From assembly GCA_965645245.1 (NCBI GenBank), contig OZ287087.1, positions 124,001 to 188,000 on the forward strand: a DNA stretch of 64,000 nucleotides. Reading direction: 5' to 3'. Below the pieces are notes generated by a model that was not told where the DNA came from, made no database searches, and saw nothing but the letters and a program-made list of their open reading frames with translations. Source of the stretch: Massalongia carnosa (Eukaryota). The translations under genes were made by a program, and so were the position numbers. Shown one piece after another: positions 23,436-61,829 of this stretch (within the stretch, counting starts at the first letter, position 1; each line of letters starts with the position of its first letter).

Positions 23436-26253
23436 CTAGTTCGTGTCAATCTCGTTATATTGCTACTAAGTATGTTTGGGCTATTGCTCACAGCCCCCGG
23501 CCTCGAGAGGGGGACTCGATAAGGGCCTTGCTGTCTACTAATGTAAGACCCTCTCGCAGGCCTTGGGCTGTGAACAGACTCCCTCTATCTAAGCGACAGA
23601 AGAACTGGAGTGGGTGGGTGGGAAAGAAAACGTTGCAAACAGTGCTATCAAAATGCTATGCTTTTTGATTGTCTTGAGATGTGAGATGATGAGGGATACC
23701 GTCTGGGACCTCCTCTTTATATATCTTCTTCCTATTCTCCTTGTCCTACTCTACCATCCCAGTATGCCCCATCAACGCGGCCCATAGCAAGGCATACACA
23801 AATCCGAAACCTAACTGTCGTCCGAAGGATCGATGCGGTGCTAAGATCTCTATGCCGTGCTGAGACATCCTTATGGTGCTGAGACATCTATGCCGTCCGA
23901 GAGATCCATGCGGTGCCGAAATCAAAGCGGGAGCTGTCTCGATTAACGACGCACTAGCTCTCAGCATAGCCGAACTAGGCAGTAGAACTTTCCGAGGAGT
24001 CTGCCAGATGGGGTCTGTCCCGAATCTACTCGAGCTGATGCGTTACGTATGCGTTTGTGTATGCGGTGGGAGCGTTTGGGCGGGGGCGTTGGCTGGGTGG
24101 GAAGGAGCCTATGGATTGAGAGGAAACGAGCAATGGGGGGTGAGAGCGAGGGAGAGCCGCAAGGGGGCGGCCGCAAGGGGGCGGAGGCGATGAAGTCCCC
24201 TAATAAGGTGCTGTTCTATGGGGTTGACCCCGCTGGATACAGCTCCCTCTCATTATAGGAATTTTCTGGCAAACTTGGGGGGGGGGGGGGGGGACCAGGG
24301 CCATGGGCTGCCCGCTGGGTGCGGGTTCCCTTATAAAAGGTCATTTTCGACGGAGTCGGGAGGCGCAACGGGTCGGCGGAATGGAGGACGAGGAAGTCTC
24401 CTGATGCGAGAGCCATTCCACGAGGTTATTCTCGCTGGGTACGGCCCCCCCGCGCCCCCCAAAGTGAATGGAGTATTGAGGAATCGGCTTCGGGAGCTCC
24501 CGGTGAAGACAGGTTCGGATGACCCCGGGGGGGCGGAGGCGAGGGCGGGGGCGATGATGTCCCGGGGGGGTGAATCCAGGCGGTCCTAGACTCTCGAGCT
24601 CCCCACCCAACTTAGCCGGTGTCAGATGGTAAGGACTACTATCATGGGCATTCATCTAGTGCTTATCTTCGGCGACTCTACCACGGGGACCGGCTTACTC
24701 CTTATGAAAAGGGTCGCCGAAAGGTCTCCAATTTGATTGCTATATAATGAAGTAGATAGCTCACATAATCCACACCTTCAATGACAATCATGCTATTATA
24801 CCTACCAAGTAAACCAATATTTCATAGCCGGATGGGGCTGAAGCTCAGTAAATCGTAGTAACAAGATTACTCTACTCGTACATTACACCATCTACACTTG
24901 GGAGTCAGTACGAGTATTTCATATAATCTTCCACAGGGGTCGGGTGTACCAAGGAGTGAACGACCCGGCCAGATGGAGGAGAATCGACACCACCGTCGAA
25001 AACATGTACCTTACTCGACGGACAGCTAACTTGTCCATGACGGGAGGTACGACCAAGCAGCACCCGGGATCAATTCCGGTAGGCGGCTCCACTGAACCAA
25101 AGCCTATGTCCTGCAATCTGCAAGGACTGCAGGTACCCTCACGTCTGCAGTCTCTGTTTCGGCCATCACACAAAAAACAACTGCCCCAAGGCACATATCA
25201 GCAACCCACATTTCATGTCAACAGGTAGACGAGATTGACTAGCCGGCCCATTTGATCATATCGCCGAAGGGTTCCCCTATCCGCTGATAGATAAATCAGC
25301 AATCGTACCCTCAGGGCCTCTAAGAAAAGAAGGCTGGGAACTTCACCTCATGGGTCATCCGGACAAACTTTACAAACAGACCATTCACTATATAATCGTG
25401 TACGGGGCCAAAATTGGTTACACCGGCCCAGATCAGTTCATTCTAAGCAGCAACCTGGCCTCGGCCAACGAGGCCCCAGAAATTCTGACCATGGACGTAG
25501 AGGACCAAAGGACCAAAAACCGATTGATCGAGGTGCCCACCCTACCAGCCAAATATATATGCTCCCCCTTAGGCTTAGTCCTCAAAGCAAACGGAGGATG
25601 GCGCCGTATTCATCACCTCTCCCACCCTGAGGGTAATTCGGTGAACGACTTCATTCCCGAGGAGTGGGGCGCTCTGGAATATATCACTTTCGACGAAGCC
25701 ATCGCCGGCGTCAGAAGAATGGGCAAGGACTGCGTACTGATCAAACGAGATTTAGCCGATGCCTTCCGCCACGTTCCAGTGGCGCAAAGCGATTGGTGGT
25801 TGCTAGGTTTTTTGTTGGAACGGGGTTTACTGGATAGAACGCTTTCTTCCATTCGGCCTTAGGACGTCTCCCTTCTTGTTTGACTTATTCGCGAAAGGTC
25901 TGAACTGGATGATGATGATGATTAATAAAACAAATGGCGAAGTTAGTCACTACTTGGACGATTTTCTCGGAATCGTTCGCGCTATTCCCGATGCGGAATC
26001 CTTCGATCGGAACTTTGCCGAAATTTGTTCAGACCTCGGCCTAAAATTCAACGAAAAGAAAAATAAACAAGGCACGGTAGTCGAATTCCTGGGCATAGAG
26101 CTGGACACACACCTGATGCAGGCACGACTACCGGCCGAAAAGCTTCAGAAAGCTAAGGATCTCGTCCAATCAACATTGAATAAATCCACGATAACCAGAA
26201 ACGAGCTAGACACTCTACTAGGATTTCTATGCTTTGCAGCCAAAGTGGTGGTA

Positions 26254-28405
26254 GAAGATTTCCCGAGGAAATGCCGCGCCCGGCGAAATGCCGCACTTTA
26301 CAATTCGGCATTAGAATATTGTTTTCGTCGTTGATCAACAACTACAACGATTAATGGAATGTGTATTAAATATAGTATAAATAGAAAGTATATACACGAT
26401 ATCCGACCTTAAAAACCTTACATAGCAAAACGCCCTGGGCGCTGGACCCTTCTTCCAGTCGAGGTAGTTAAAACCACCTCCTCTACCTCTTTAGCGATAA
26501 TAACACGAGTAGGCGGCTTTACCTTCTTCTTTCGAGTCTTTTGAACTTTATTAGACCCTGTATACTGCTTCTGCTGCCCGAGCTGTCCCTTAGGATATCT
26601 GTTTGCTGTTTTACGTAACTCCTTCTGAGCCTGCTTCTCAGCGGCCTTTGCTACCTTTGCTTCTGCAGTCAATCGCCGCTTCTCTAGAGCGATTGCTACC
26701 TTTTCTAGCTTCTCCTCTTCTTTCTGTAACCTTTTAGCAGTAGCTTGTCGTCGCTTCTCGCTAATATCTAGCTGGCGTTGTGCTTCTTCTTCCTCTTTTG
26801 CTGCTTGAAATTCCCTGGCAGCCTGTACTCGCCTAGGACTAAAGAATTGAGGGCCTGAGTCCTCTTCCCCAACTAAATTAAGCCGTTTACCTCTCTTCCT
26901 CCTCTTCTTTTCGTCCTGAAGGGTATTGCAGAGCCCTTTGATCACGTATTTGTTGATAGAGTCCTGGGCAGCAAGGCGTTCGTTAGCCCGGAAGATCTTT
27001 GCTAGTAATAAATTTGTAGGCGCAATATCGTACGCTCGCTGCGTACGGCGAATAGCACGGCTTGTCATTGGTGTTTTTGGCGACTGAGAAGGAGCCTCGA
27101 TTATCTGTGGTGTGATAACATTTAGTATAAGGCTCGGATTGTAAGGCTAAATACCGGTTTTTTCGAAGGCAGAAGTAATTTTTTCCTCCGAAAATGCCTG
27201 CTGCCATGCAGGGAAGAAAACGCTCCAAAAGGCTCTTTTTGACATGTTTATCATGCCTAGACTCTCGAACATTAGTCTATTCAGCCCATTGGTATAGAAC
27301 GTTGCTAACGGCGCGAATAGAGAAACGTCCAGAGGCTGTAAACGATGCGTAGAGTGCGAAGGTAGAATCAGGAGAAGAATACGTAAGTTATCGCATTTAT
27401 CGATAAACTTAAGATTCACGTGGCTAGAATGACCGTCTACTATCAGTAAACGTCTTCTATTTCTAGCCTTTTGCTTCGTATAACGCTGAAAAACCTGCTC
27501 TAGCCAATTTAGGCCAAGGATATCACAACTCCATCCTTTCGCCGATACTGCAAAGAACGCCTCGTCATTAGGATTTACATCCTCAACCCATGTATCCTGG
27601 AGTATGCCAGAGTCGCCTTTATAGATCAAGGCAGGAGGTAAAGCGGTTCCGTCGGCCCCGATACAAGCAAGGAGGCTGATAAACTCCCTATTCCCGTCCT
27701 GGCTTGCATGTGTGATCCGCCCTGATTCAAGGGCCTCTAGCGACATGATACGTTGCGTGGCGCTTGCTTGGCCAATCACAAAGCCCCTTTCGTCCCAATT
27801 GTAAAGGTTTTCCCTCGTGATATTGTATTTTTCGACACCGGCGATTAGCTAATAGAAACATTAGTTATTTTCGATCATAATTAATATTCAACAAATAGGA
27901 ATGGGTAGTTAACACGCTACCAAATCGTAGAATTGCTTAAATAAAGGCGGATACTCAGATTTTATACGCTGGCTATCCATATTTCGAAGATAAAGACTTT
28001 TAAGCCTATCCTTGTATCGGCGGACAAAATCCCCTGTCCAGTTCTTCTCTACAGGCCCTCCTATCACCTCCTCCGCTAGGTTTCGTACAATTCTGGCGGT
28101 TGGGGGCAGTCCACGATCGACAAGGCGATTGATTTGCTGAATTAAGGCCTCTTCCTGGGCCAAGGTAAGTCGTTGCTTGTATTTTGACGCGGCTGCCTTT
28201 TGGGACACCGTTTGGCCTTTCCAGCGCCTCCGGAGGGTACTTTCGACTAGGCTAAACCTTTTAGCTGTCCCCCTGAGGTTAGGCTGATCTTGCTGATTCA
28301 GATCAGCAATTGCGAGCTCGATACGAGCGTTGAGGGTGGATTTATTCATGTCTGAAAGTAATGGTTGGAAAGTGAGAAGATGCGGCATTTCCTCGGGAAA
28401 TCTTC
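26254..28405 (-). mobile_element. Complete pogo/Fot1-like DNA transposon
   Basis: Perfect 24-bp TIR GAAGATTTCCCGAGGAAATGCCGC with TA TSD. Transposase runs 28349 to 26418 with an intron at 27849-27920 and motifs NWDEKGF, VDGHSSH and LQPLDV. One premature TAG at 27147-27149. Confidence 0.96.
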
Positions 28406-29049
28406 TACCGGGAAGAACTTTTCTCCGACGCCTTTTCAACAGCAAAATCGGGCCCGCGCGCCCATTTATTCATATCAATTCTCACATAAAAGCTGATCTT
28501 TTATGGTGGCATCATTTCCTTCCATTATGGAACGGCATACACATTATTAGCCCTTCGAGACCCCTGCTCCGTCTCTGGACGGATGCCAGTGGGGACTTCG
28601 GAATCGGGGCATACATACTTCAAGGTGGTCAGACCACACACACATTGCCCGCTGAGCAAGTGGTTTCTGAACGTTATACCACCAGGCTCAGAGCCAAACA
28701 TATCAATGAGAAGGAGATGACAGCGATTCTGCACGCCATACGGCGGTGGCTCCCCATGTGCAAGGGAGCTCATCTTCTTCTTTATTGCGACAGCTTTGCT
28801 GTAATGTCCGGGGTCAAAAAGACCTCCATTCGGGGCGGGGCCATGCATCTCCTCCGGAATATCGCCATGATGGCGGCAATATATGACATTGAGATTGAAC
28901 CACACTGGCTGTCTACCAAAGAAAATTTCTTAGCAGATTGGTTGTCCCGAGGACTATTTGGAAAAATCGCTGACAATTACCCCACCCAACCTGCAGGGCA
29001 TTTCATCGAACAAATAACGGCGTCACTCGCCCGCGACCCTCCAGAGACT

Positions 29050-30035
29050 TGGTATAACGAGGTTCCGCTGGATCGCCAAGCAGCCAGATATTTATGGTGG
29101 GGCATAGCAATTAGGACTCGAGGGCTATACGATGCAGCCCAGAAAAGCTACACGACCTACTGTCAATTAGCAACGAATTTCCCTCCCTTTCCAGCGACAA
29201 TTCGAAGCCTTTCGGCATGGATAGCCGCCCTGGGTCAGCGAGGGCTCCGCCCCAAAACCATCAAAAACTATTTAGCTGGAGTACGATCGAGCCAATTGGA
29301 CATGGGCCTGGGGGACCTGGAGGTCTTTCACCATCCAGTCCTAGACAGAATAATTGCGGGAATAAAACGAATGCACGGTGAACCAGAAAGACGAGAAAGG
29401 CTACCAATCACACGCAACATTTTGATAAAATTGCTACGGAAACTAGACACTACTAACGAGGTCCAGGCAACACTTCATGCGGCATACAGCATCGCATTCT
29501 CTTAGGAGCGGGAGAATTTACCTACAAACAGGGAGAAATGCAAGACTCCAGCTTCGATTCATGGCATTTAACTAGATAATCGGTGGATCAACAGGCGGAT
29601 CGAATAATTCTTTCCCTACCGTCATCCAAGACGGATCCTTTTCTAAGGGGTAGAAAAATTTATATCGCAGCAACAAACGACGAAGCATGCTTGATCACCT
29701 CCATTCGGAACTTGTTTACCCGATTCCCGAAACCAGCATCGTCCCCATTGTTCCAGGTTCAGGAAAAGACCTTCACTCGTGAATATTTAGTGCAGGCCCT
29801 ACGGAGTGGCCTCCGGGCAGTTGGCGTCCGAGGGAATTACTCGGGTCATTCGTTTCGACGGGGTGCAGCAACAACGGCCAAGAACTCGGGCTTGCAAGAG
29901 GAAGATATTCAGACCTTGGGCCGATGGAAATCAGACTCGTATCAATTGTACATTCAGACTCATCCGGACCAATTAATAGCGACCTCCATTCGTTTTCAAC
30001 GACCCCCCGCCACGTTCCGAACAGCACCACCGTAG
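29050..30035 (+). pseudogene. Tyrosine recombinase of the retroelement
   Basis: TIKNYLAGVRS, RLPIT, a disrupted LRAGEF at about 29500, LPSSKTDPF, SGHSFRRGAAT (H-x-x-R) and LGRWKSDSYQLY (catalytic Tyr). Start position is approximate. Confidence 0.92.
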
Positions 30036-30402
30036 GTGGGCCATTCCCTGCTTGGGGTTGGGAGTTTTTCCCCTCACTGCTGCCAAAACAAAGCCATTAT
30101 AGGAGGGGCCCTCAGCAAAACTGAGCGCCAGCAGGGCAGCAGCGAGGGGAGAGTTGCCCAAACATAGATAGAAATTATGAGCCCGCGAATTACTATATGA
30201 CTGCTGTATGACTGCTATAAAAGCAGATAGATAGCCCACATAGATGAGTAACTTCAATGACAATCATGTTATTATACCTAGACGTGAATCATACTATCTA
30301 TCAGGTTTAAGAGATATATAAGGGTCAATGATAACTTGGACGATTAGCGAAGCCTCGGAATGTACTGAATCCGATACCAAGACCGTCGACTTCCGAGCGT
30401 TT

Positions 30403-31239
30403 CTAGCGATTGCTCCTATAATTTTGAAGCAGGTCAATCATCTTCGCATCACCCTTCGCCTCAGCAATGGCAAGCGCCGTGCGCTTCTTCTCGTCCAAAA
30501 TATCACAATCAGCTCCTTGATTCAAGAAAATCAAAACAACATCGCTTTGTCCCGCCTCCACAGCCGCGTGCAATGGAGGCCACTTATGACCGAAACCAGA
30601 TTCAAGAACAACGTCATTCACATCTGCCCCCTGCTTTAGTAAGAATTCTACTAAGTCCTTCTGCCCATGCATGGCCGCGGCAGCCAATGTTCCAGAACCG
30701 CGCAGCTTCGCATCATATCGGATCAAAATCGTACAGAATTCTATGGATCTCGATTGCCACGGCAAAGCAACTAGGCATAGCGGACTAATAGCATCGCTGT
30801 CGATATGGGGGTTTGGATTCACTCCCGAGGATAAAAGGAACTCGATGTATTCTGGCGTAGTCGGGGTGCTGAGGGCGCGACCAAGCTGGGACTCGCGGCC
30901 ATCATAGATAGTCATTTGAACGATGTTCGGGTCATGACGTCTTAAGGTGTCGTAGAGAAGAATGGATTTCGTGGTGATGACATGACGAATGACTTCCTCT
31001 GTGACGTTTGTCTTAGGATATGTTTGCAGGATGAGTTGAACAGTCTCGATATTGTTGAATTGGCATGCTTTTGCTAGCATCTCATCGGTCACCGATGGAT
31101 CCAATTGGACGAGATCCTTCGGTCTGGATGTTTTGATGTTGTCAGCGGTGGCGGGGGCTTGCAGAAGCTCTCGCAGTCTTGAAGTGTCGTCATTAGTGCA
31201 GGCTGCTAGGAGCTGCTCCTTCGCTATGGACATGGACAT
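30403..31239 (-). CDS. Ankyrin-repeat protein, 278 aa, intronless, no signal peptide
   Basis: Open ORF with ankyrin repeats TLAAAAMHGQKDLVEFLLKQGADVN, PLHAAVEAGQSDVVLIFLNQGAD and TALAIAEAKG. Confidence 0.9.
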   Translation of the reverse strand: MSMSIAKEQLLAACTNDDTSRLRELLQAPATADNIKTSRPKDLVQLDPSVTDEMLAKACQFNNIETVQLILQTYPKTNVTEEVIRHVITTKSILLYDTLRRHDPNIVQMTIYDGRESQLGRALSTPTTPEYIEFLLSSGVNPNPHIDSDAISPLCLVALPWQSRSIEFCTILIRYDAKLRGSGTLAAAAMHGQKDLVEFLLKQGADVNDVVLESGFGHKWPPLHAAVEAGQSDVVLIFLNQGADCDILDEKKRTALAIAEAKGDAKMIDLLQNYRSNR

Positions 31240-32012
31240 ACTGAGGATTGAAGACAGTCACTGATTATCGAGAGCGACTGCTTTAGTGGAAGAGTCTCCT
31301 AAAACTTATTTAGGTGTTTTTGTCAAAGTATTCTCAAAGAAATGACTCAGGCAATGTGGTTACTTGTACGGTGACAGGTCCCGGCAGAACCAGCTTATGC
31401 GAAGATTATCCGGTCAATCAACTTCCCACAGACCCACACTGTAAGGTGGTTTTCAGAGAACTGCCGATCACGAAAACGTTAGGAGATACAATGTACCCGT
31501 CTCTTGCTTCGAAACGATTGTTGCGATCTAATATAAGCTGGAGGTGGTACAGTACCCGGCAGGAATGCACGATTGTAGACCGCAAACCTCCCTTGAAGCT
31601 CAATTTGCAGACTTTCAGACACCAACGCCGTTAGTACTTCCCTTATCAGAATGGGCTTCTAAGTTAGCGCCTTTTCTAACCTGAACCCCGTAAGATTTTG
31701 GTTTCGGTGGCGTGGGATTCAGCCTCAGACCACGCTACTCGCACAACGGCTCCGCGCCATGCCTCCAACGTGCCTAGGTCCCCGAAGAACGACTAACGCA
31801 GCTTACGATTAGCATAAGGTGGTGTCGACGTCGTGCCTTGACGTCTCGGTCACCTGAAGCCGTACACCAAGCCTGTACCTGAGTCAATATGGGTCTTGTG
31901 CCTCAGATCACAGCTAAATCAAATCACAGCTAAATCAAATCTGGTCATGGAGCACGTAGCTCCACGGCGACAGCCAGTTAAAACTTCTTGTAGCCTCTAC
32001 GTGCATGGAAGG

Positions 32013-32902
32013 TGTTAAATAAACAGTTGACGGCATAATGTTGAAATTACTACGGAGGTGACTGCTTATAGCAGTCATGGCAGCCTGCAGGGCTGAGCTA
32101 GATCTAATGGGGCTAAGCGAGTATTCCAACACTCCCCTTCGAGCGTGGCTCCCCTTTCGCCTCCAAAATTGAAACTATCCAGCTTTTATCACTCCCCTTG
32201 CAAGTGATTCATCCAGCTGTGTCCGATTCGCTCCCCTTGCGGAACGAATCTAGCTCCCTCTGACTCCATTTTCCCTAAGCACGTAGTTCTTTCTTATGTC
32301 TTTTGTTGTCCTGCTTTGTAGCCTCATTAAACCCATAACCATCTCTCGAAACGTAGCTTTTGTGAGTGTATGGGTGGATGGGAAGAGTACTATGGACGTG
32401 TTTTGTTGATGGCCTGAGCAGGGCTTTTCTCGATGTCTCTGTTAGACATTTTCCCGCAGACCATTGACGTTGGTGGCCTGATCGCAGGGCTTTTATCTCC
32501 CCTTGCTGATCTGACCAGTAATGCAAGATGTGAAGTCTTCGAGGCACCGCCCATTGTAGATGTCCTCCTCAGCACGTTTCGTACGTACACCACTTTCGAT
32601 GACGTTTCCGCTTCGTTTCCGCTTCGTTTCTCATCCCTTTCGATGTCGTTTCCGCTTCGTTTTCGCGCTTTCCACGTCTGAACTTTCACCTCATCATCTT
32701 CTTGATACGACATGATAGTACGTAGTCTATGCATGAAGGATGCCGTCGGAGGGGCGCAAAGCACAAACCCGGGACTCATAACCTGTTAAATAAACAGTTG
32801 ACGGCATAATGTTGAAATTACTACGGAGGTGACTGCTTATAGCAGTCATGGCAGCCTGCAGGGCTGAGCTAGATCTAATGGGGCTAAGCGAGTATTCCAA
32901 CA
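32013..32902 (-). mobile_element. TRIM or internally deleted Copia-type element, 890 bp
   Basis: Identical 119-bp LTRs (32013-32131, 32784-32902) with TSD GAAGG. PBS GGTTATGAGTCCCG (32783-32770) and PPT GAAGGGGAG (32140-32132). No pol. Confidence 0.95.
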
Positions 32903-33335
32903 GAAGGAACTTCAGTCCACAGCGGCTGGGTAGCGTCCATGTCATGGATGATCATGGCAAAGCTCGCTGCGCCTTGCAGATTATCGAGCTGATGTTGCTC
33001 CATGATGTTGGCGTTTCGTCTTCTGCACCTCGTTGATACTCTGTGACAAAGAAATTTCAGTTAGTGCTGTCCACGAGGCTTTGGGTCTAGCTTTGAAGCA
33101 AATCCTGGTTGCACATTCTCAATATGTAAAGGCCATAAGACGAATACTTTTCAAACTAAATAACAGCACTTCAGTCGAGAGAGAGATCTCAATTGTACAG
33201 TTCGTCTTTCAGATCATATTCGAAAGGTGTTGCCTTGCATCATTATTCTCATTTACAAATCATTGTGTCCACTCTTCAACCCAGCCCAGCTCCCTCACCA
33301 ACCCATCGAAGAAAGGAACTCAACAGACTCGCAAA

Positions 33336-33950
33336 ATGCGATCCTCAACAAGCTCTTTCGCGGATGGACTCGTCCGTCTGGCGTCGGTATTCGTTACCTT
33401 CCTCATGCTAATCAATATATTTGGTATTCCAGCATCTGGTGCTCCAATCGAAAACAAAGAAATTTCCGACAAGAAAGTCTTCGAACGCGGCACGTGTCCT
33501 TCCGTGAGCACCCTCGCCGCCTTCATGCAATCACAAGGTGCAGGGGATAACACAATTTTTTACACTGCGCCCGCCACCAGTCAGCAAGCCCTCTCACTCA
33601 GCACTACTTTGGATCCCAGGGGCAACTACTATGGTAGCTTGGTATCCCGGAACGATATGCTTGGATGGCTTGATAACTGCGGTTTTGAGCCAACGGAACA
33701 AGACAAACTCGTCCCTCGCATCTCTACAGCCATAGCCGCAGCCGCCTCTGGGACAGCTTATGTTCTTATCTCGCCAGGGCGGGATCCTAGGATCGGCAGA
33801 TCTATCTGGGTGGTCAATGAATTTCCCACATTGATGCGGAATGGGGCTATCACTTCGGTCGTTCGTATCGATCCTGATGATATCACGCAAGCTCCTGTCC
33901 AAATCTGGAAACGAGGGGATCCTGTTGATCTTCCAGCCAGCCCCGCTTAA
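33336..33950 (+). CDS. Secreted protein, 204 aa, ADP-ribosyl-cyclase/NADase-like candidate
   Basis: ATG at 33336 in AAAATG context, a hydrophobic signal-like segment ending ASG-API, and motif ISTAIAAAASGTAYVLI...SIWVVNEFPTLMRN. The CDS is well supported; the function is inferred. Confidence 0.8.
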   Translation: MRSSTSSFADGLVRLASVFVTFLMLINIFGIPASGAPIENKEISDKKVFERGTCPSVSTLAAFMQSQGAGDNTIFYTAPATSQQALSLSTTLDPRGNYYGSLVSRNDMLGWLDNCGFEPTEQDKLVPRISTAIAAAASGTAYVLISPGRDPRIGRSIWVVNEFPTLMRNGAITSVVRIDPDDITQAPVQIWKRGDPVDLPASPA

Positions 33951-35950: not shown

Positions 35951-36616
35951 ATGCATACTTCAATCGTCACCATTCTCGCTGCCGGCAGCTTCTACAGCCT
36001 TTCTTGCTCGGCAGCACCCCAACCCCAAACAACCGGTGCGATCTCATTTGTTGTGGGTCAGCTCGATTCCAATGGCCAGATCGACTGGTGGCCAGCCGAA
36101 AATGGAGGGCGCACGGCTACTATTCCTGCCGACCTCGTCTCATCAGCCCAGCCAGGCTCTACGAAAAGAGTAGTTGTCCGTCACGGTCCTAGCGCCGATG
36201 TTGATGGCTTCACCAATATTGGACAGATTGCAGGCAATGCAGCATCCTACGCCTGCGAAAAAAATGGTGCCTACGGAGTCAGCAGCACCATTGAATCTCT
36301 CGCCACTGATGCCTGCTCCACATTTCTAAAGTCAGTCCCTGGCGCGCCTGTGGCGGAGAAAGCCTGGAACGTTTGGCAATCGCCCAGCAAACCAGGAGCG
36401 AGCGGAAATCAGATCGTGACCACCTTCCGCTGGTTCTACAACAGCGCGAGTGCCCCTTCGCTCACGGACACCGTTTGCAGTACCGTTTATCAGCAGCTTA
36501 CGAGTGTTTTCTGCCAGGGCAAGGGAGATCAAGGTACAGACACCAGAGGCGGCGAGATCAAGATTGGAACTGGTGATGATTACCTCATGATTGGTCTTGA
36601 TCCCAACGGCGCTTAG
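35951..36616 (+). CDS. Small secreted protein, 221 aa, effector candidate
   Basis: TATAAA at about 35780, signal peptide MHTSIVTILAAGSFYSLSCSA-AP, Kex2-like KR, four Cys in the mature domain, and C-terminal TRGG...DPN. Confidence 0.85.
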   Translation: MHTSIVTILAAGSFYSLSCSAAPQPQTTGAISFVVGQLDSNGQIDWWPAENGGRTATIPADLVSSAQPGSTKRVVVRHGPSADVDGFTNIGQIAGNAASYACEKNGAYGVSSTIESLATDACSTFLKSVPGAPVAEKAWNVWQSPSKPGASGNQIVTTFRWFYNSASAPSLTDTVCSTVYQQLTSVFCQGKGDQGTDTRGGEIKIGTGDDYLMIGLDPNGA

Positions 36617-36978
36617 ATGGCAGCAAATGATAGAACCTTACGGTCGAGAGATCGGTACAATCAGGATTATTGACAGTTTGGGAATTACCAATAGCAAATA
36701 TTTTTGGTACGAAGGAAGAGGGGTTTCGTGGCATTTTTGACATAGCAACAATTTTTATTTCATATAGAATTGAAAACAAGTATCTGGAATACGTCGCGCA
36801 ACGGGTTGGATTAAACCCGTCGGGTTACAAAACCCGTCGGATTTGTTGAATATGATGATTCATGTGTAAGTATAGTAGCAAGATTGTTATTGAAGATAAT
36901 TATCTATGTGGGTTGTCTACCTGCTTTTATAGCAGTCACAAAGCAGTAACATAACAGTGACGTTGTAGACTCCTCATA

Positions 36979-56984: not shown

Positions 56985-59900
56985 ATGACCGGATCCTCCC
57001 CAAGTCGATCCCTTCTAACGCGTACTTTCGCAAGGCGCGATGATATGAAAGACTCCAAGGGACCCTTGGGATTGGGCACCCTGTCTGAGCCTTTGGGCCC
57101 AGCGATTGCAGACTTGGTGTTTGTACATGGTCTAGGAGGTGGTTCCCGAAGCACTTGGACGAAATCTACAGATGAGTCGCTCTTCTGGCCTCAGGAGTGG
57201 CTTCCGGTAGACGGAGGATTCCGAGATGTTCGCATACATTCGTTCGGTTACAATTCCAACTGGGAGAAGGAGAGTACCCTAAATATCCATGACTTTGCAA
57301 GAGCGCTTCTTGGGTCGCTGCAAGATTGCCCTACGATTCCTCGAGACTCAAGAGTACGTATTGCTCCTCAATATCGCAAAATCGTTACATGTAGTTTCCC
57401 TTAGGTCAATAACTTTGTCGTTGCTTAGCATTGGAGATACTGACGCGGCCCACAGGCATCGTTAATTTTCGTGGGCCATAGCATGGGGGGTCTTGTTATC
57501 AAGAAGGCGTACATTCTTGCTCAACAATTCCGAGAATTTCGATCTATTGGCGAGCGAGTTCGCGCCATGTTTTTTTTAGCAACTCCTCATCGAGGCTCAG
57601 ACCTTGCAGCACTGTTGACCAGGATCCTCCATGCAGCTCATGGCGCCAGACCATTTGTTCAGGATTTACATCGCAACTCTTTGGCGACACAATCAACAAA
57701 CGATGAGTTTTCACATCACTGCCAGAACTTGCAGCTTTTTTCCTTCTATGAGACACTCCCAACTAATTACGGTATCGGAAAAGGTCTTGTGGTTGACAAA
57801 GATCTAGCAGTCTTAGGTTATTCCAACGAGCGAATAGCATACATGAATGCAAATCATCGCGAGATCTGCAAGTATGACGGTAAAACTGATCCAAACTATC
57901 TACTCCTCCGCAACGCTCTTGCTTCAACAATCGACGGTTTCCGAGGTCGGAAGTCCTTGTCGCAGCACGATCTTGATATAGAGCAGCGAACCCTTCTCGA
58001 TAGCTGCCTTGACATGTCAGATATAACAGAAGATGACTTTATGGGTGTCGACGCAAGACGATTGAGTGGATCTTGTGAGTGGCTAATGGAAAGAAAGAGT
58101 TTCCAAAGGTGGCGAGACTTGTCTATAAATGCGCATATATATTGGATTAGCGCAAAACCAGCCACAGGAAAAACAGTCCTTTCGGGTTTTATTGTCAAAT
58201 ATCTCAAAGAGCTAGGTGAAGATTGCGCATTCTACTTTTTTGATTATGGTGATAAGGTCAAGGCGACTATCAGCTTTTGGCTGAGATCTATGGCCTGGCA
58301 AATGGCCATCAAGCATCCAGAAATTTTAATGACTGTCTTTGAGATTTGCAGCAAAGATGATCAACTTGCTAAAGCAGATTATCGCACTGTATGGCGAAAA
58401 TTATTTCTCGATGGTTTGTTGAGGGTGAAGATCGATAGACCTCAATATTGGGTGATTGATGCACTAGACGAATGCAGGAGCGATTTTGAGCTGGTTTCTT
58501 TACTTTTGAAAGTTTCAGAAATGCTGCACGTACGGATCGTTGTTACATCTCGGAACAAGTATGAGTCATACAGTCAGATTATACCTTCGAAGATAAATGT
58601 GATCTCTGAGGAGATTTTAGAGGACGACACCAAGTTGGATATATCACTTTATCTGAAAGCAAGCATGTGTTTTCTTCCTTCAGTTAATGAAGGCGACCGT
58701 CAGAACACAGTAGTCAAGATCCTCGAGAAATCAGCTGGATGTTTCCTGTGGGTCAACCTGGTCATGAAAGAGCTGAGACAGGTCCACACGGCTGCAGAAG
58801 TTTTCCAGGTACTTGAAGACGTTCCTTCTGACATGGACGAATTATACTCCCGAATACTCAACTCAATGTCAAAAACACCCTACGGCAAAATACTTGCGAA
58901 AGCAATTCTGACCTGGACGGTGTGTTCGGCAAGACCTCTCACCACCGAAGAGTTGTATCATGCCCTTCAGCTTGACATCAAGGATAGCATAGACAGCATC
59001 GAAAAATCTATAACATCTTGTTGTGGTCAACTGGTCTACGTTGATACAAGGTCCCGCGTACACATGGTACACCAGACTGCAAGAGACTTTCTACTTCGAC
59101 CAACTAACCCTTCTGAATTTGCAATAAACAGGAAAACGGGTCAAAAGCGTCTGGCAACGACTTGTCTGCAATATCTCTGTGGTAACGAGATGAAAGGCCC
59201 GAGATCTCGGAAGCTGAGCTTAAATAATGTTGTCAAACCACAATGTGCGTTCGCCCTTTATGCATGCAGTGCGCTTCATGAGCATATTGGTCACGTTTCT
59301 TCAACAGATGACGAGGTTTTCCTTGAATTAATGAAGTTCTTGAGATCTTCAAATATTCTATCGTGGATTGAACATCTTGCACAGATCCCCAACCTCAGCT
59401 GTATAATTCAGACCGGTAATTCTTTGAGAAATTATCTTCGACGAAGATCAAGATCCGTTTCTCCTTTTGGTAAGGATTTCGCCACCTTAGATTCCTGGGC
59501 GATAGATCTGGTTCGATTGGTGGCTAAATTTGGAAAGAATCTGTCAGCCTCACCTGCTTCGATCTTTCACCTTATACCACCATTTTGCCCACCAGAAAGT
59601 GCCCCAAGAAAACAATTCGCGGCCTCTGTGCGTGACATCACTGTTCTTGGCTTGTCTGCCACGACTTGGGATGATTGCCTATCTACCATAATCCACCCAG
59701 GCGAGCAACTAACGGCTTTGACATGCTGCGATAAATACTTTGCCGTTGGATTATCCAATGGCCGTTTCGTGGTCTACCAAGATTCGACATGTCAAGAGAT
59801 TCATACATTGCAGCACCAGGAACCTTTAAGGATGTTACAGTTTGGTCAGAAAGGGAATGCGATCGCTTCTGCGGGAATGAAAACTATACGCCTCTGGGAT

Positions 59901-61829
59901 ATTGCCTTGTGGCAGCAATTGTGGCAATTAGACACATCAGTAGATTGCTTATCGCTTTGTTTTACAGACGAGGACAGACTCTTGCTCGGAGCGCTCAGAA
60001 ACAATCGATTGATGATCTGGGATCTCACTACTGGTCTTCTGAGGGATTCTACGGAGTGGACGAGGGACAATGAAGACAAGTGCACTCACGCCTATCGCCG
60101 GCCTATAGCCGCTGCGATTTGTGTAGAATCGAGTCTCCTCGCCATTGTATATAGAGGGCAAGACATACTCATCTGGGACATTGAAAGAAACTCAGTGCAC
60201 GAGACTTACGGAAAAGAAACGGGAGCTCACCAAGATGACACGGTAACGAGAAATGTCAAGGCCTTTGTGACAGGGGGGTTAGTTTTTAGCGCAGATCCAA
60301 ATGCTGCTCTGCTCGCCGCCTCTTATTCGGACGGTGATCTCGTCTTATTCGATATCTATGAAGGCACTGTGAAGGAGAAAACACTGGCAAACGCGCAGAT
60401 CCTCGCCAGTTCCCCCAATGGACGCACACTAGCTGCTGCTGATTCTGTAGGCACAATACAAATATTCGACTTCGAAAGTCTTAAACTTTTGTACTGTATA
60501 AGTTCAGAGGAATACGGCATCAAGTCGTTGGCATTTAGTGGAGACAACTGTCGTTTACTGGAAATCAGAGGATCAGAATGCCGAGTTTGGGACCCAGCTA
60601 TTCTACTTCGACAGGATGATGATGAAGAGAACAGCGACACAGTTTCTGTTTCCACGCTTCCCCAGGAAATCAGATTGGAGTCCTCCGAGGATATTGTATT
60701 GATCACTTCCTTAGCTTGCCATGGGAGTGGTGAATTCTTCTTCTGCGGTAAATCGGACGGAGCAATCTATCTATACGACAGTGAATCTGGCTTGGAGATT
60801 CAAAAACTCATCAGCCATTCAAATGGAGCCTCAATCTTGTTGCTCTACTTCAACAATCAAAGCAATATTTTGAGTAGTGTAGATGCATCTAGCCGAGTAA
60901 TGAGTCACAAATTATCTCCACAAGACAAGTCCTGGAAGGCGGTCAAGCCTTCGGTCGATCATCGTCTCGGTGTGGCCGCTGATCAGGTGTTGAGTAATGA
61001 GAAGGGCACGCGAGTGCTTGTGTCCTCAGCCAGCAAAGTCGTGCTTTATTTAATTGCCCTGGACGGAAGTTCGACTATGACGAGCATTGAAAGTGTGGAT
61101 CGTCGACCGCACAGATGGGCAAACAATCCATCAAATCATAATCAACTTATATTAATATGTAATGAAAGAGCGCACTTGTATGAATGGGAGACACTTAAAA
61201 GACTGACGACCTCTGAGGGCATAATATTTGATGGCAACCTACTCCCGCAACTTTCAATACGATCTCTTACCCCTTGTGCACAGGGCCGTTACCTTGCCGC
61301 CACGTTCAGTGAGCTTTCGGGATCATTTTCTAGGTCCAAAAAACTTCTGCTGTGGAGGACGTCGGATTTCTCCATTCAGTCTCCCTCAATAGCGGCTGTT
61401 CCATCAAATCAAGTTCTCGTCGATCAAGTCCATTTTTTGATTGGCACTTACGGGCAGAGACTAATTTTTCTACACTGCAATGGCTGGGTCTGCTCGATAG
61501 ATATGTTGAAACCAAATGTCGATCATCACGTTCGTCACTTCTTCATTCCAGTTGACTGGCTGAGCGCCAGTATCGATCTGATAATTGATGTGACTTGCAA
61601 TGGAGATATCGTCTATGTTAAGAGACACGAAGTTGCAGTAATTAAGCGCGGCCTCCAGGCCACCGAGCAAGGGCCAGCTTCAGTCGGCAAGAGATCCTCA
61701 GAGATAGGTGCGAAAAGACCGTCACTACGAGTAACGAAGAGCCAAATGTCGGAAGAAACATTTGTGAGACCTTATCCAGAAAGGGAATGGTCCTCACTGC
61801 CGGTAGGAAGGACCAAAGAACTAGAATGA
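56985..61829 (+). CDS. Fungal NLR: alpha/beta-hydrolase (SesB-like)-NACHT-WD40, ~1580 aa, 2 exons
   Basis: Intron 57354-57455 (GTACGT...CTGAC...CAG) joins the two ORFs in frame. Hydrolase motifs VFVHGLGG, GHSMGG, TPHRGS and NHREICKY. Walker A SAKPATGKT, Walker B WVIDALDE, and C-terminal WD repeats. Confidence 0.93.

Follow-up and report, generated by a model that had tools for sequence, protein, structure and literature searches.

What is encoded by a small, intact fungal gene with a signal-like N-terminus that lies head to head with a gene for an ankyrin-repeat protein, and do the two genes belong together? This question is raised by a locus of Massalongia carnosa. It lies within a stretch of 64,000 nucleotides (GenBank assembly GCA_965645245.1, contig OZ287087.1, positions 124,001 to 188,000 of the forward strand), which we call the window and whose own numbering we use throughout. 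A preliminary description made from the sequence alone had proposed that the two genes form a toxin-immunity pair, that is, a secreted protein resembling ADP-ribosyl cyclases (ARC) and enzymes that degrade nicotinamide adenine dinucleotide (NAD), here P0001, and a cytoplasmic ankyrin protein as its antidote, here P0002. Our analysis strongly supports the ARC relationship of P0001. We consider it likely that P0001 belongs to the ARC superfamily as a small enzyme which the fungus secretes and which acts on extracellular NAD(P)+, and that the ankyrin gene is its co-inherited neighbour. The pair is made up as follows.

33336..33950 (including the stop codon), + strand: gene of P0001, a predicted secreted protein of 204 amino acids (aa) with ARC fold (CD38/Tox-ARC-like); from the list of open reading frames (ORFs)
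30403..31239, - strand: gene of P0002, an ankyrin-repeat protein of 278 aa without signal peptide, the conserved divergent neighbour; from the ORF list
31240..33335, no strand: intergenic region common to both genes, 2,096 bp, or 1,201 bp without an inserted terminal-repeat retrotransposon in miniature (TRIM); from the ORF coordinates

Both genes are uninterrupted ORFs in divergent orientation. P0001 can be aligned over its whole length with orthologues of 201-207 aa, and P0002 likewise with orthologues of 274-283 aa. Since these lengths are nearly equal to their own, the two genes are complete and intronless. The ORF list and the full-length alignments confirm what had been described from the sequence, namely two intact, intronless and divergent genes, and the spacing of about 1.2 kb that had been given without the TRIM follows from the coordinates (2,096 - 895 = 1,201 bp). 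The first observation of the locus holds in each detail that we checked. A paralogue of P0001 or P0002 was not found in the 64-kb window.

Relationship of P0001 to the ADP-ribosyl cyclases

When P0001 alone was compared by phmmer with the sequences of the Protein Data Bank (PDB), the entry 9ro8 ("ADP-ribosylcyclase toxin") ranked first, at a non-significant E value of 0.47. A HMMER scan of 1.84 billion cluster representatives retrieved 75 proteins at E ≤ 1e-3, of which 26 were found at E ≤ 1e-10. Six long matches among the 75 (P0031, P0044, P0050, P0053, P0063 and P0078) consist of tandem repeats and are not recognised by the profile of the family; they were rejected as false positives, which leaves about 69 true clusters of the ARC family. 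The alignment used in the following, A1, has 46 rows: P0001, P0004 and 44 near-full-length matches of 157-262 aa. Short fragments, tandem-repeat proteins and the weakest matches were omitted from it.

The profile derived from A1 recognizes 9ro8 in the PDB sequences with an E value of 4.5e-12 and 9ouf (Tac1) with 2.4e-11. The metazoan enzymes are found as well, human CD38 with 2.3e-4, BST-1 with 1e-3 and the Aplysia cyclase with 6e-3, and the first 38 of the 45 matches listed are chains of the ARC family. The Pfam family PF02267, whose model is built on the metazoan enzymes, is matched weakly by nine of the 46 A1 members (best E value 3.3e-4). AlphaFold2, run on A1, yielded a model with a mean predicted local distance difference test score (pLDDT) of 90 and a predicted template modelling score (pTM) of 0.74. 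A Foldseek search with this model of P0001 gave seven matches at E ≤ 1e-3, and all seven are ARC enzymes. Matches in the ESM Atlas (scores 0.81-0.85, with Rib_hydrolayse at rank 9) are leads at best.

The homology of P0001 to the ARC superfamily is strongly supported, because sequence profile, fold prediction and fold search agree independently. Its nearest relatives are the compact ARC domains of bacterial toxins. The ARC-like nature that had been proposed for P0001 is thus borne out by all three approaches, and the comparison with CD38 and Tox-ARC that had been suggested as a check returned the ARC fold as the predicted one.

The predicted active site

Two positions in P0001 mark the predicted active site in the alignment.

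33819..33821, + strand: codon of Glu162, the predicted catalytic glutamate; only invariant column of A1 (46/46)
33723..33725, + strand: codon of Ser130, start of the helix with the S-x-x-x-A motif; Ser in 39/46

Glu162 had already been singled out as the candidate catalytic residue, with the same codon position. Beyond being invariant it aligns with the glutamate of "NVELP" in 9ro8 (E356 of the toxin ARCtox from Pantoea) and with that of "SVEVHNL" in CD38, the catalytic E226. Ser130 aligns with the serine of "DVSASYA" in 9ro8 and of "TVSRRFA" in CD38. In addition, Trp158 is kept in 44 of the 46 A1 members, and P164 and L166 are nearly invariant.

In the Pantoea toxin, exchange of W273, E299, W323 or E356 against alanine abolished toxicity, and the authors equate these four residues with the two glutamates and the two tryptophans of CD38 (PMC12605009). 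We mapped the four residues to P0001 by counting along the HMMER alignment with 9ro8 and not by structural superposition.

ARCtox E356 (catalytic Glu): P0001 Glu162; A1 column Glu in 46/46, the sole invariant one
ARCtox W273 (first pocket Trp): P0001 Tyr76; A1 column Tyr in 35/46 and Trp in 11/46, all aromatic
ARCtox E299 (second Glu): P0001 Gly100; A1 column acidic in 7/46, or in 17/46 if the next column is counted
ARCtox W323 (second Trp): P0001 Val126; A1 column Trp in 3/46, and 3/46 anywhere in the five surrounding columns

The caveat that the tryptophan before the first motif is absent was therefore justified, as Val126 is found in that place. How such substitutions might affect the reaction can be judged from Tac1, whose catalytic glutamate is E573. 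E573A was the sole mutant that lost all activity and toxicity, and most of the pocket mutants were still toxic. The mutant of the second glutamate, E516A (equivalent to E146 of CD38), released cyclic ADP-ribose and did not complete the hydrolysis (PMC12356396). Because the second glutamate tunes hydrolysis versus cyclisation in Tac1, its absence in P0001 argues for an altered product mix and not against the ARC fold. Since the catalytic glutamate is strictly kept and the glutamate that favours hydrolysis is missing, we predict that P0001 is active and that its products may lean toward cyclic ADP-ribose.

Secretion and processing of P0001

The preliminary description had noted a signal-like peptide on one of the two proteins. 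We find its elements at the N-terminus of P0001.

33336..33440, + strand: signal-peptide-like N-terminus, residues 1-35, with a charged n-region, hydrophobic residues from about 15 to 31 and the sequence ASG/AP; from sequence reading

The AlphaFold2 model of P0001 has a helix at residues 8-30, and a crude hydropathy test detects an N-terminal hydrophobic window in 43 of the 46 A1 members. Two cysteines are conserved in the family, Cys54 in 37 and Cys115 in 39 of the 46 members, which is compatible with a disulfide in an exported protein. From these sequence features we infer that P0001 is secreted.

The precursor might be processed a second time. A basic residue is located at most four residues before Cys54 in 34 of the 46 A1 members; in P0001 the sequence reads "FERGT/CPS" (residues 48-54, positions 33477-33497). 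In 14 of the 46 members a dibasic pair lies within six residues before the conserved Cys-Pro with which the ARC domain starts. These sequences suggest a Kex2-like cleavage of a propeptide in part of the ARC family.

Distribution of the family and comparison with known systems

The named members of the ARC family are "hypothetical proteins" of the basidiomycetes Hypholoma sublateritium and Coprinellus aureogranulatus and of Daldinia species, which are ascomycetes. The protein P0015 from Hypholoma sublateritium is named "SnoaL-like domain-containing protein" in UniRef. As the family has the ARC fold, the name was probably assigned automatically and in error. Zhang et al. (2012; PMC3482391) reported Tox-ARC in "fungi (ascomycota, basidiomycota)" and proposed that the fungal genes were gained from bacteria, independently of the acquisition by animals. 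As the named members come from both phyla, the P0001 family is very probably the fungal set of these authors. In the passages of their paper considered here, neither the neighbourhood nor a partner of a fungal gene is described, nor any experiment. In the literature that we searched, the term "Tox-ARC" appeared in one paper only and no experimental study of a fungal ARC enzyme was found. The family is known from computation since 2012 and is still annotated as hypothetical.

The closest known systems are bacterial ARC toxins, namely ARCtox from Pantoea ananatis (9ro8; PMC12605009) and Tac1 from Streptococcus parasanguinis (9ouf; PMC12356396). In the bacterial proteins the ARC domain is the C-terminal cargo of PAAR proteins of the type VI secretion system, LXG proteins of the type VII secretion system or CdiA proteins, whereas P0001 is a stand-alone domain with a predicted eukaryotic signal peptide. 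The partners of the bacterial toxins are small immunity proteins, of the Imm74 type or others, and the neighbour of P0001 is an ankyrin protein instead. P0001 also lacks the second glutamate and the second tryptophan of these toxins and has a tyrosine for the first tryptophan. The metazoan enzymes CD38, BST-1/CD157 and Aplysia cyclase (PF02267) differ in their architecture. Each comprises some 250 aa and has several disulfides as well as an additional helical lobe at the N-terminus, and P0001 has no Pfam score to this family.

Those surface NADases of fungi that have been characterised are of another type, the TNT type, with AfNADase as the example. They resemble P0001 as we read it: they are secreted or surface-bound and cleave NAD+ and NADP+ extracellularly, and a role in interactions with hosts or competitors has been proposed for them. 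However, they have an unrelated TNT-like fold, carry a glutamine in place of the catalytic acidic residue of other NADases and show no cyclase or base-exchange activity (PMC7955114).

The ankyrin protein and the conservation of the pair

P0002 matches the Pfam families Ank_2 (3.7e-19) and Ank (2.8e-17). Its AlphaFold2 model (pLDDT 87) consists of helix pairs along the whole chain and the protein has no N-terminal hydrophobic stretch, in line with the earlier view of a protein with ankyrin repeats only and no signal. A word-indexed search of 5.8 billion proteins, covering lengths of 152-487 aa, found six orthologues with 45-73% identity, all below an E value of 1e-60, one of them from Lepraria neglecta (P0089, gene OEA41_006690). 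The latter points to a lichen-forming ascomycete, or a fungus related to one, as the source of the window. The alignment of the orthologues has 56 invariant columns. Judged from these sequences, the P0002 family is narrowly distributed and lineage-restricted.

It had been suggested that a real pair should be found repeatedly adjacent in other fungi. We scanned metagenomes with the ten closest ARC sequences (A2) and obtained four loci, L001 to L004. In L001 an ARC orthologue (60% identity) is accompanied by a full-length ankyrin orthologue (56%) 2,096 bp upstream and on the other strand, thus head to head as in the window. L002 has the pair in the same arrangement, but it is the same sequence as L001 (99.6% over 8.2 kb) and not independent. 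L003, with 1,941 bp, is too short to show linkage. In L004 there is no ankyrin gene within 4.4 kb and 9.7 kb of the ARC copy, but this copy is a pseudogene and the test is therefore unfair. The degraded copy (4437-4874 of L004) is sister to P0006; it is interrupted by two in-frame stops, its catalytic "E-F-P" motif is disrupted, and it lies among ordinary metabolic genes (glutaminase A, a short-chain dehydrogenase/reductase and MoeA).

We compared the 64-kb window with the 20.6-kb locus L001 by blastn and tblastx and found that only the two genes are in common. The neighbours of the pair in L001 are housekeeping genes (M3 peptidase, ALG10, a metallophosphatase, GINS Psf2 and DUF2196), none of which is present in the window. 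Between the spacer of the window and the spacer of L001, which has 2,095 bp, no significant alignment was obtained, and we therefore do not propose a common promoter motif. The silent sites of the two genes are saturated between window and L001 (dS 1.5 and 2.3), and both genes are under purifying selection (dN/dS 0.20 and 0.14).

A further case is provided by the ARC orthologue P0003 and the ankyrin orthologue P0085. Each is on a single Logan contig, and as both report a contig of 27,831 bases we take the two genes as linked, probably on one and the same contig. The phylogenies of the two proteins mirror each other. The ARC subclade ((P0001,(P0003,P0004)),(P0005,L001)) has supports of 97-100 (ultrafast bootstrap) and 89-99 (Shimodaira-Hasegawa-like approximate likelihood ratio test, SH-aLRT), and the ankyrin tree ((P0002,(P0085,P0086)),(P0087,P0088)), in which P0088 is the ankyrin protein of L001, has the same shape and similar pairwise identities. 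In total, five lineages have both the ARC and the ankyrin gene. In two of them the genes are neighbours, and in a third they probably share a contig.

An adjacency that is kept despite otherwise unrelated flanks is more than chance, and within a small clade the ankyrin gene is truly a conserved divergent neighbour of the ARC gene. As regards recurrence of the pair, L001 is a verified independent case and P0003/P0085 a probable one, while a duplicate, a short contig and a pseudogene add nothing to it. Since only six ankyrin orthologues were found at the lengths searched, most of the about 69 ARC clusters appear to exist without this ankyrin.

The spacer and the surroundings of the pair

The intergenic region is interrupted by a small retroelement.

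32013..32902, + strand: TRIM-like element of 890 bp with long terminal repeats of 119 bp (32013-32131 and 32784-32902); from direct repeats, ends and target duplication

The two direct repeats of 119 nucleotides are 100% identical, the ends of the element are TG..CA, and a target duplication of 5 bp, GAAGG, is found at 32008-32012 and 32903-32907. For depth and joints we aligned contigs from three public DNA runs to the region. The depth over the TRIM is about 30 to 150 times that of the two flanking single-copy genes (run X1), indicating a high-copy family. An empty-site joint, which connects position 32007 to 32903 and skips 895 bases, is present in all three runs, with one contig each and a short side of 25 letters. 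Because this joint occurs in all three runs, we regard the insertion as apparently young and polymorphic.

Transposable elements abound around the pair, with Ty3, Mutator-like element (MULE), long interspersed nuclear element (LINE) endonuclease, pogo/Tc5, hAT, Tc1 and copia domains in fragmentary ORFs. The preliminary description had placed the pair amid dead transposable elements, and most of the window does consist of such fragmentary ORFs, of these seven types. On the left of the ankyrin gene we observe an RNase H fragment of a retroelement, an ORF of 385 aa at 28348-29505 (+ strand), and a DDE transposase of the pogo/Tc5 type that is split across two ORFs at 27150-28388 (- strand). Together, the two form the transposable-element boundary on the ankyrin side of the pair. 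The same region also contains an ORF of 1,448 aa at 57483-61829 (+ strand) with an NTPase of the NPHP3_N/NACHT type, a winged-helix domain and WD40 repeats, an architecture like that of fungal NLR-like (NACHT-WD40) proteins.

A third intact small gene is situated at 35951-36616 (+ strand), 2 kb downstream of the ARC gene. It codes for 221 aa with a signal-like N-terminus. It matched no Pfam family, and a search of the PDB sequences gave nothing below an E value of 0.058. The cluster to which its protein belongs has three members. As this ORF is absent from L001-L004, it lies outside the conserved pair.

Two copies of a repeat of about 100 bp in opposite orientation enclose the ankyrin gene, the ARC gene and the 221-aa ORF. 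We considered this inverted repeat of 104 nucleotides (30194-30297 and 36850-36953) as the boundary of a mobile element but rejected it, since the repeat is dispersed, is high-copy by read depth and has a third copy at 24734-24804, with 80-83% identity between the copies. Probably it is a fragment resembling a miniature inverted-repeat transposable element (MITE) or a short interspersed nuclear element (SINE) and does not represent the ends of one element.

Proposed function and alternative explanations

We suggest that P0001 acts in the following steps. The signal peptide would be removed, possibly followed by a cleavage behind the basic residue just before Cys54. The remaining domain of about 150 residues would fold like the compact bacterial ARC toxins and most likely act extracellularly, splitting NAD+ and NADP+ at the nicotinamide-ribose bond. 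Glu162 would stabilise the ribosyl intermediate, and Tyr76 and Trp158 would line the pocket. Without the second glutamate, which drives the hydrolysis of the cyclic intermediate in CD38 and Tac1, the enzyme might release more cyclic ADP-ribose than the bacterial toxins. Its role would likely be extracellular, i.e. the removal or conversion of NAD(P)+ where the fungus meets partners or competitors. The ankyrin gene would be a lineage-restricted neighbour that is co-inherited with the enzyme gene in the clade, a functional link between the two being possible.

We note, however, that some points weigh against this proposal. The Pfam scan of P0001 returned no family even at E ≤ 10, PF02267 included. 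Two of the four residues that are essential for the toxicity of ARCtox, E299 and W323, are not kept in P0001, so that its activity and its substrate are not assured; as said above, the correspondence of these residues was obtained by counting along an alignment. Moreover, if the head-to-head position of the ankyrin gene is more than neutral synteny, an explanation by the enzyme only fails to account for it.

The latter point leads to the alternative of a eukaryotic toxin-antidote pair, which we regard as unlikely. According to this explanation the ankyrin protein in the cytosol binds to the active-site cleft of the ARC domain and neutralises the enzyme. It would protect the producer from precursor that has folded before translocation, or from enzyme that enters the cell again from adjacent hyphae. 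The divergent layout would allow co-regulation via a common promoter region. In this view the two genes would have been passed on together, as a head-to-head module, within a clade of ascomycetes that probably form lichens. A cytosolic guard against a precursor that folds before export is mechanistically reasonable, and there is a precedent in Streptococcus pyogenes, whose secreted NADase SPN needs the cytoplasmic inhibitor IFS. Normally, however, an exported enzyme and a cytosolic ankyrin protein share no compartment, and P0001 has nothing but the ARC domain, preceded by a signal peptide and a short linker, and no delivery or translocation domain. Longer fused ARC forms were not found among proteins of 358-2000 aa, which is weak evidence.

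The genomic evidence can be read in both ways. L001, where the two orthologues are divergent neighbours with nothing else in common with the window, the contig reported for both P0003 and P0085, and the agreement of the two trees in shape and pairwise identities are all expected for a functional pair. But direct adjacency is seen in one independent relative only, and mirrored trees in five lineages are expected whenever two linked genes of any kind are handed down together. The conserved adjacency, too, would look no different if both were simply linked, lineage-restricted genes with vertical inheritance. The invariant columns and the purifying selection in the narrow ankyrin family would likewise suit an antidote, but six ankyrin orthologues at the lengths searched stand against about 69 ARC clusters. 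Further, a TRIM has inserted between the two genes and the intergenic DNA is not conserved in comparison with L001.

As to the ankyrin fold itself, the preliminary description had referred to ankyrin proteins as a recognised class of immunity proteins. This is correct insofar as Imm-Ank is recorded, but it is recorded for Tox-AHH, Tox-GH-E and deaminases, whereas the partners given for Tox-ARC are Imm74 and Imm63 (Zhang et al., PMC3482391). The neighbour of P0001 is neither of these. On the other hand, the immunity proteins that neutralise bacterial ARC toxins by plugging the cleft have unrelated folds (PMC12605009, PMC12356396).

A second alternative, in which P0001 has kept the ARC fold without being a glycohydrolase or cyclase of NAD(P)+ and either uses another nucleotide substrate or is a non-catalytic secreted binding protein, appears very improbable to us: Val126 and Gly100 at the places of W189/W323 and E146/E299, either of which abolished the toxicity of ARCtox when changed to alanine (PMC12605009), and the missing Pfam match would agree with it, but a glutamate that is invariant down to about 23% identity and nearly invariant W158, S130, P164 and L166 point to a maintained active site, and in Tac1 only the catalytic glutamate was essential while most pocket mutants remained toxic (PMC12356396).

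A secreted ARC enzyme with a co-inherited ankyrin neighbour is in our view the explanation that best fits this locus. ARC enzymes make or destroy NAD-derived signals, and it was not until 2025 that they were demonstrated to serve bacteria as weapons. P0001 is a compact and well-modelled fungal example of them. By removing extracellular NAD(P)+ or by releasing cyclic ADP-ribose, a secreted enzyme of this kind could act on a photosynthetic partner or on competitors. Should the ankyrin protein turn out to be an inhibitor of P0001, the logic of toxin and immunity would extend to secreted enzymes of fungi. The two proteins would then be the first fungal counterpart of the bacterial NADase-immunity pairs and P0002 the first ankyrin inhibitor of an ARC enzyme, which would guard the cytosolic NAD pool of the producer against precursor that folds before export.

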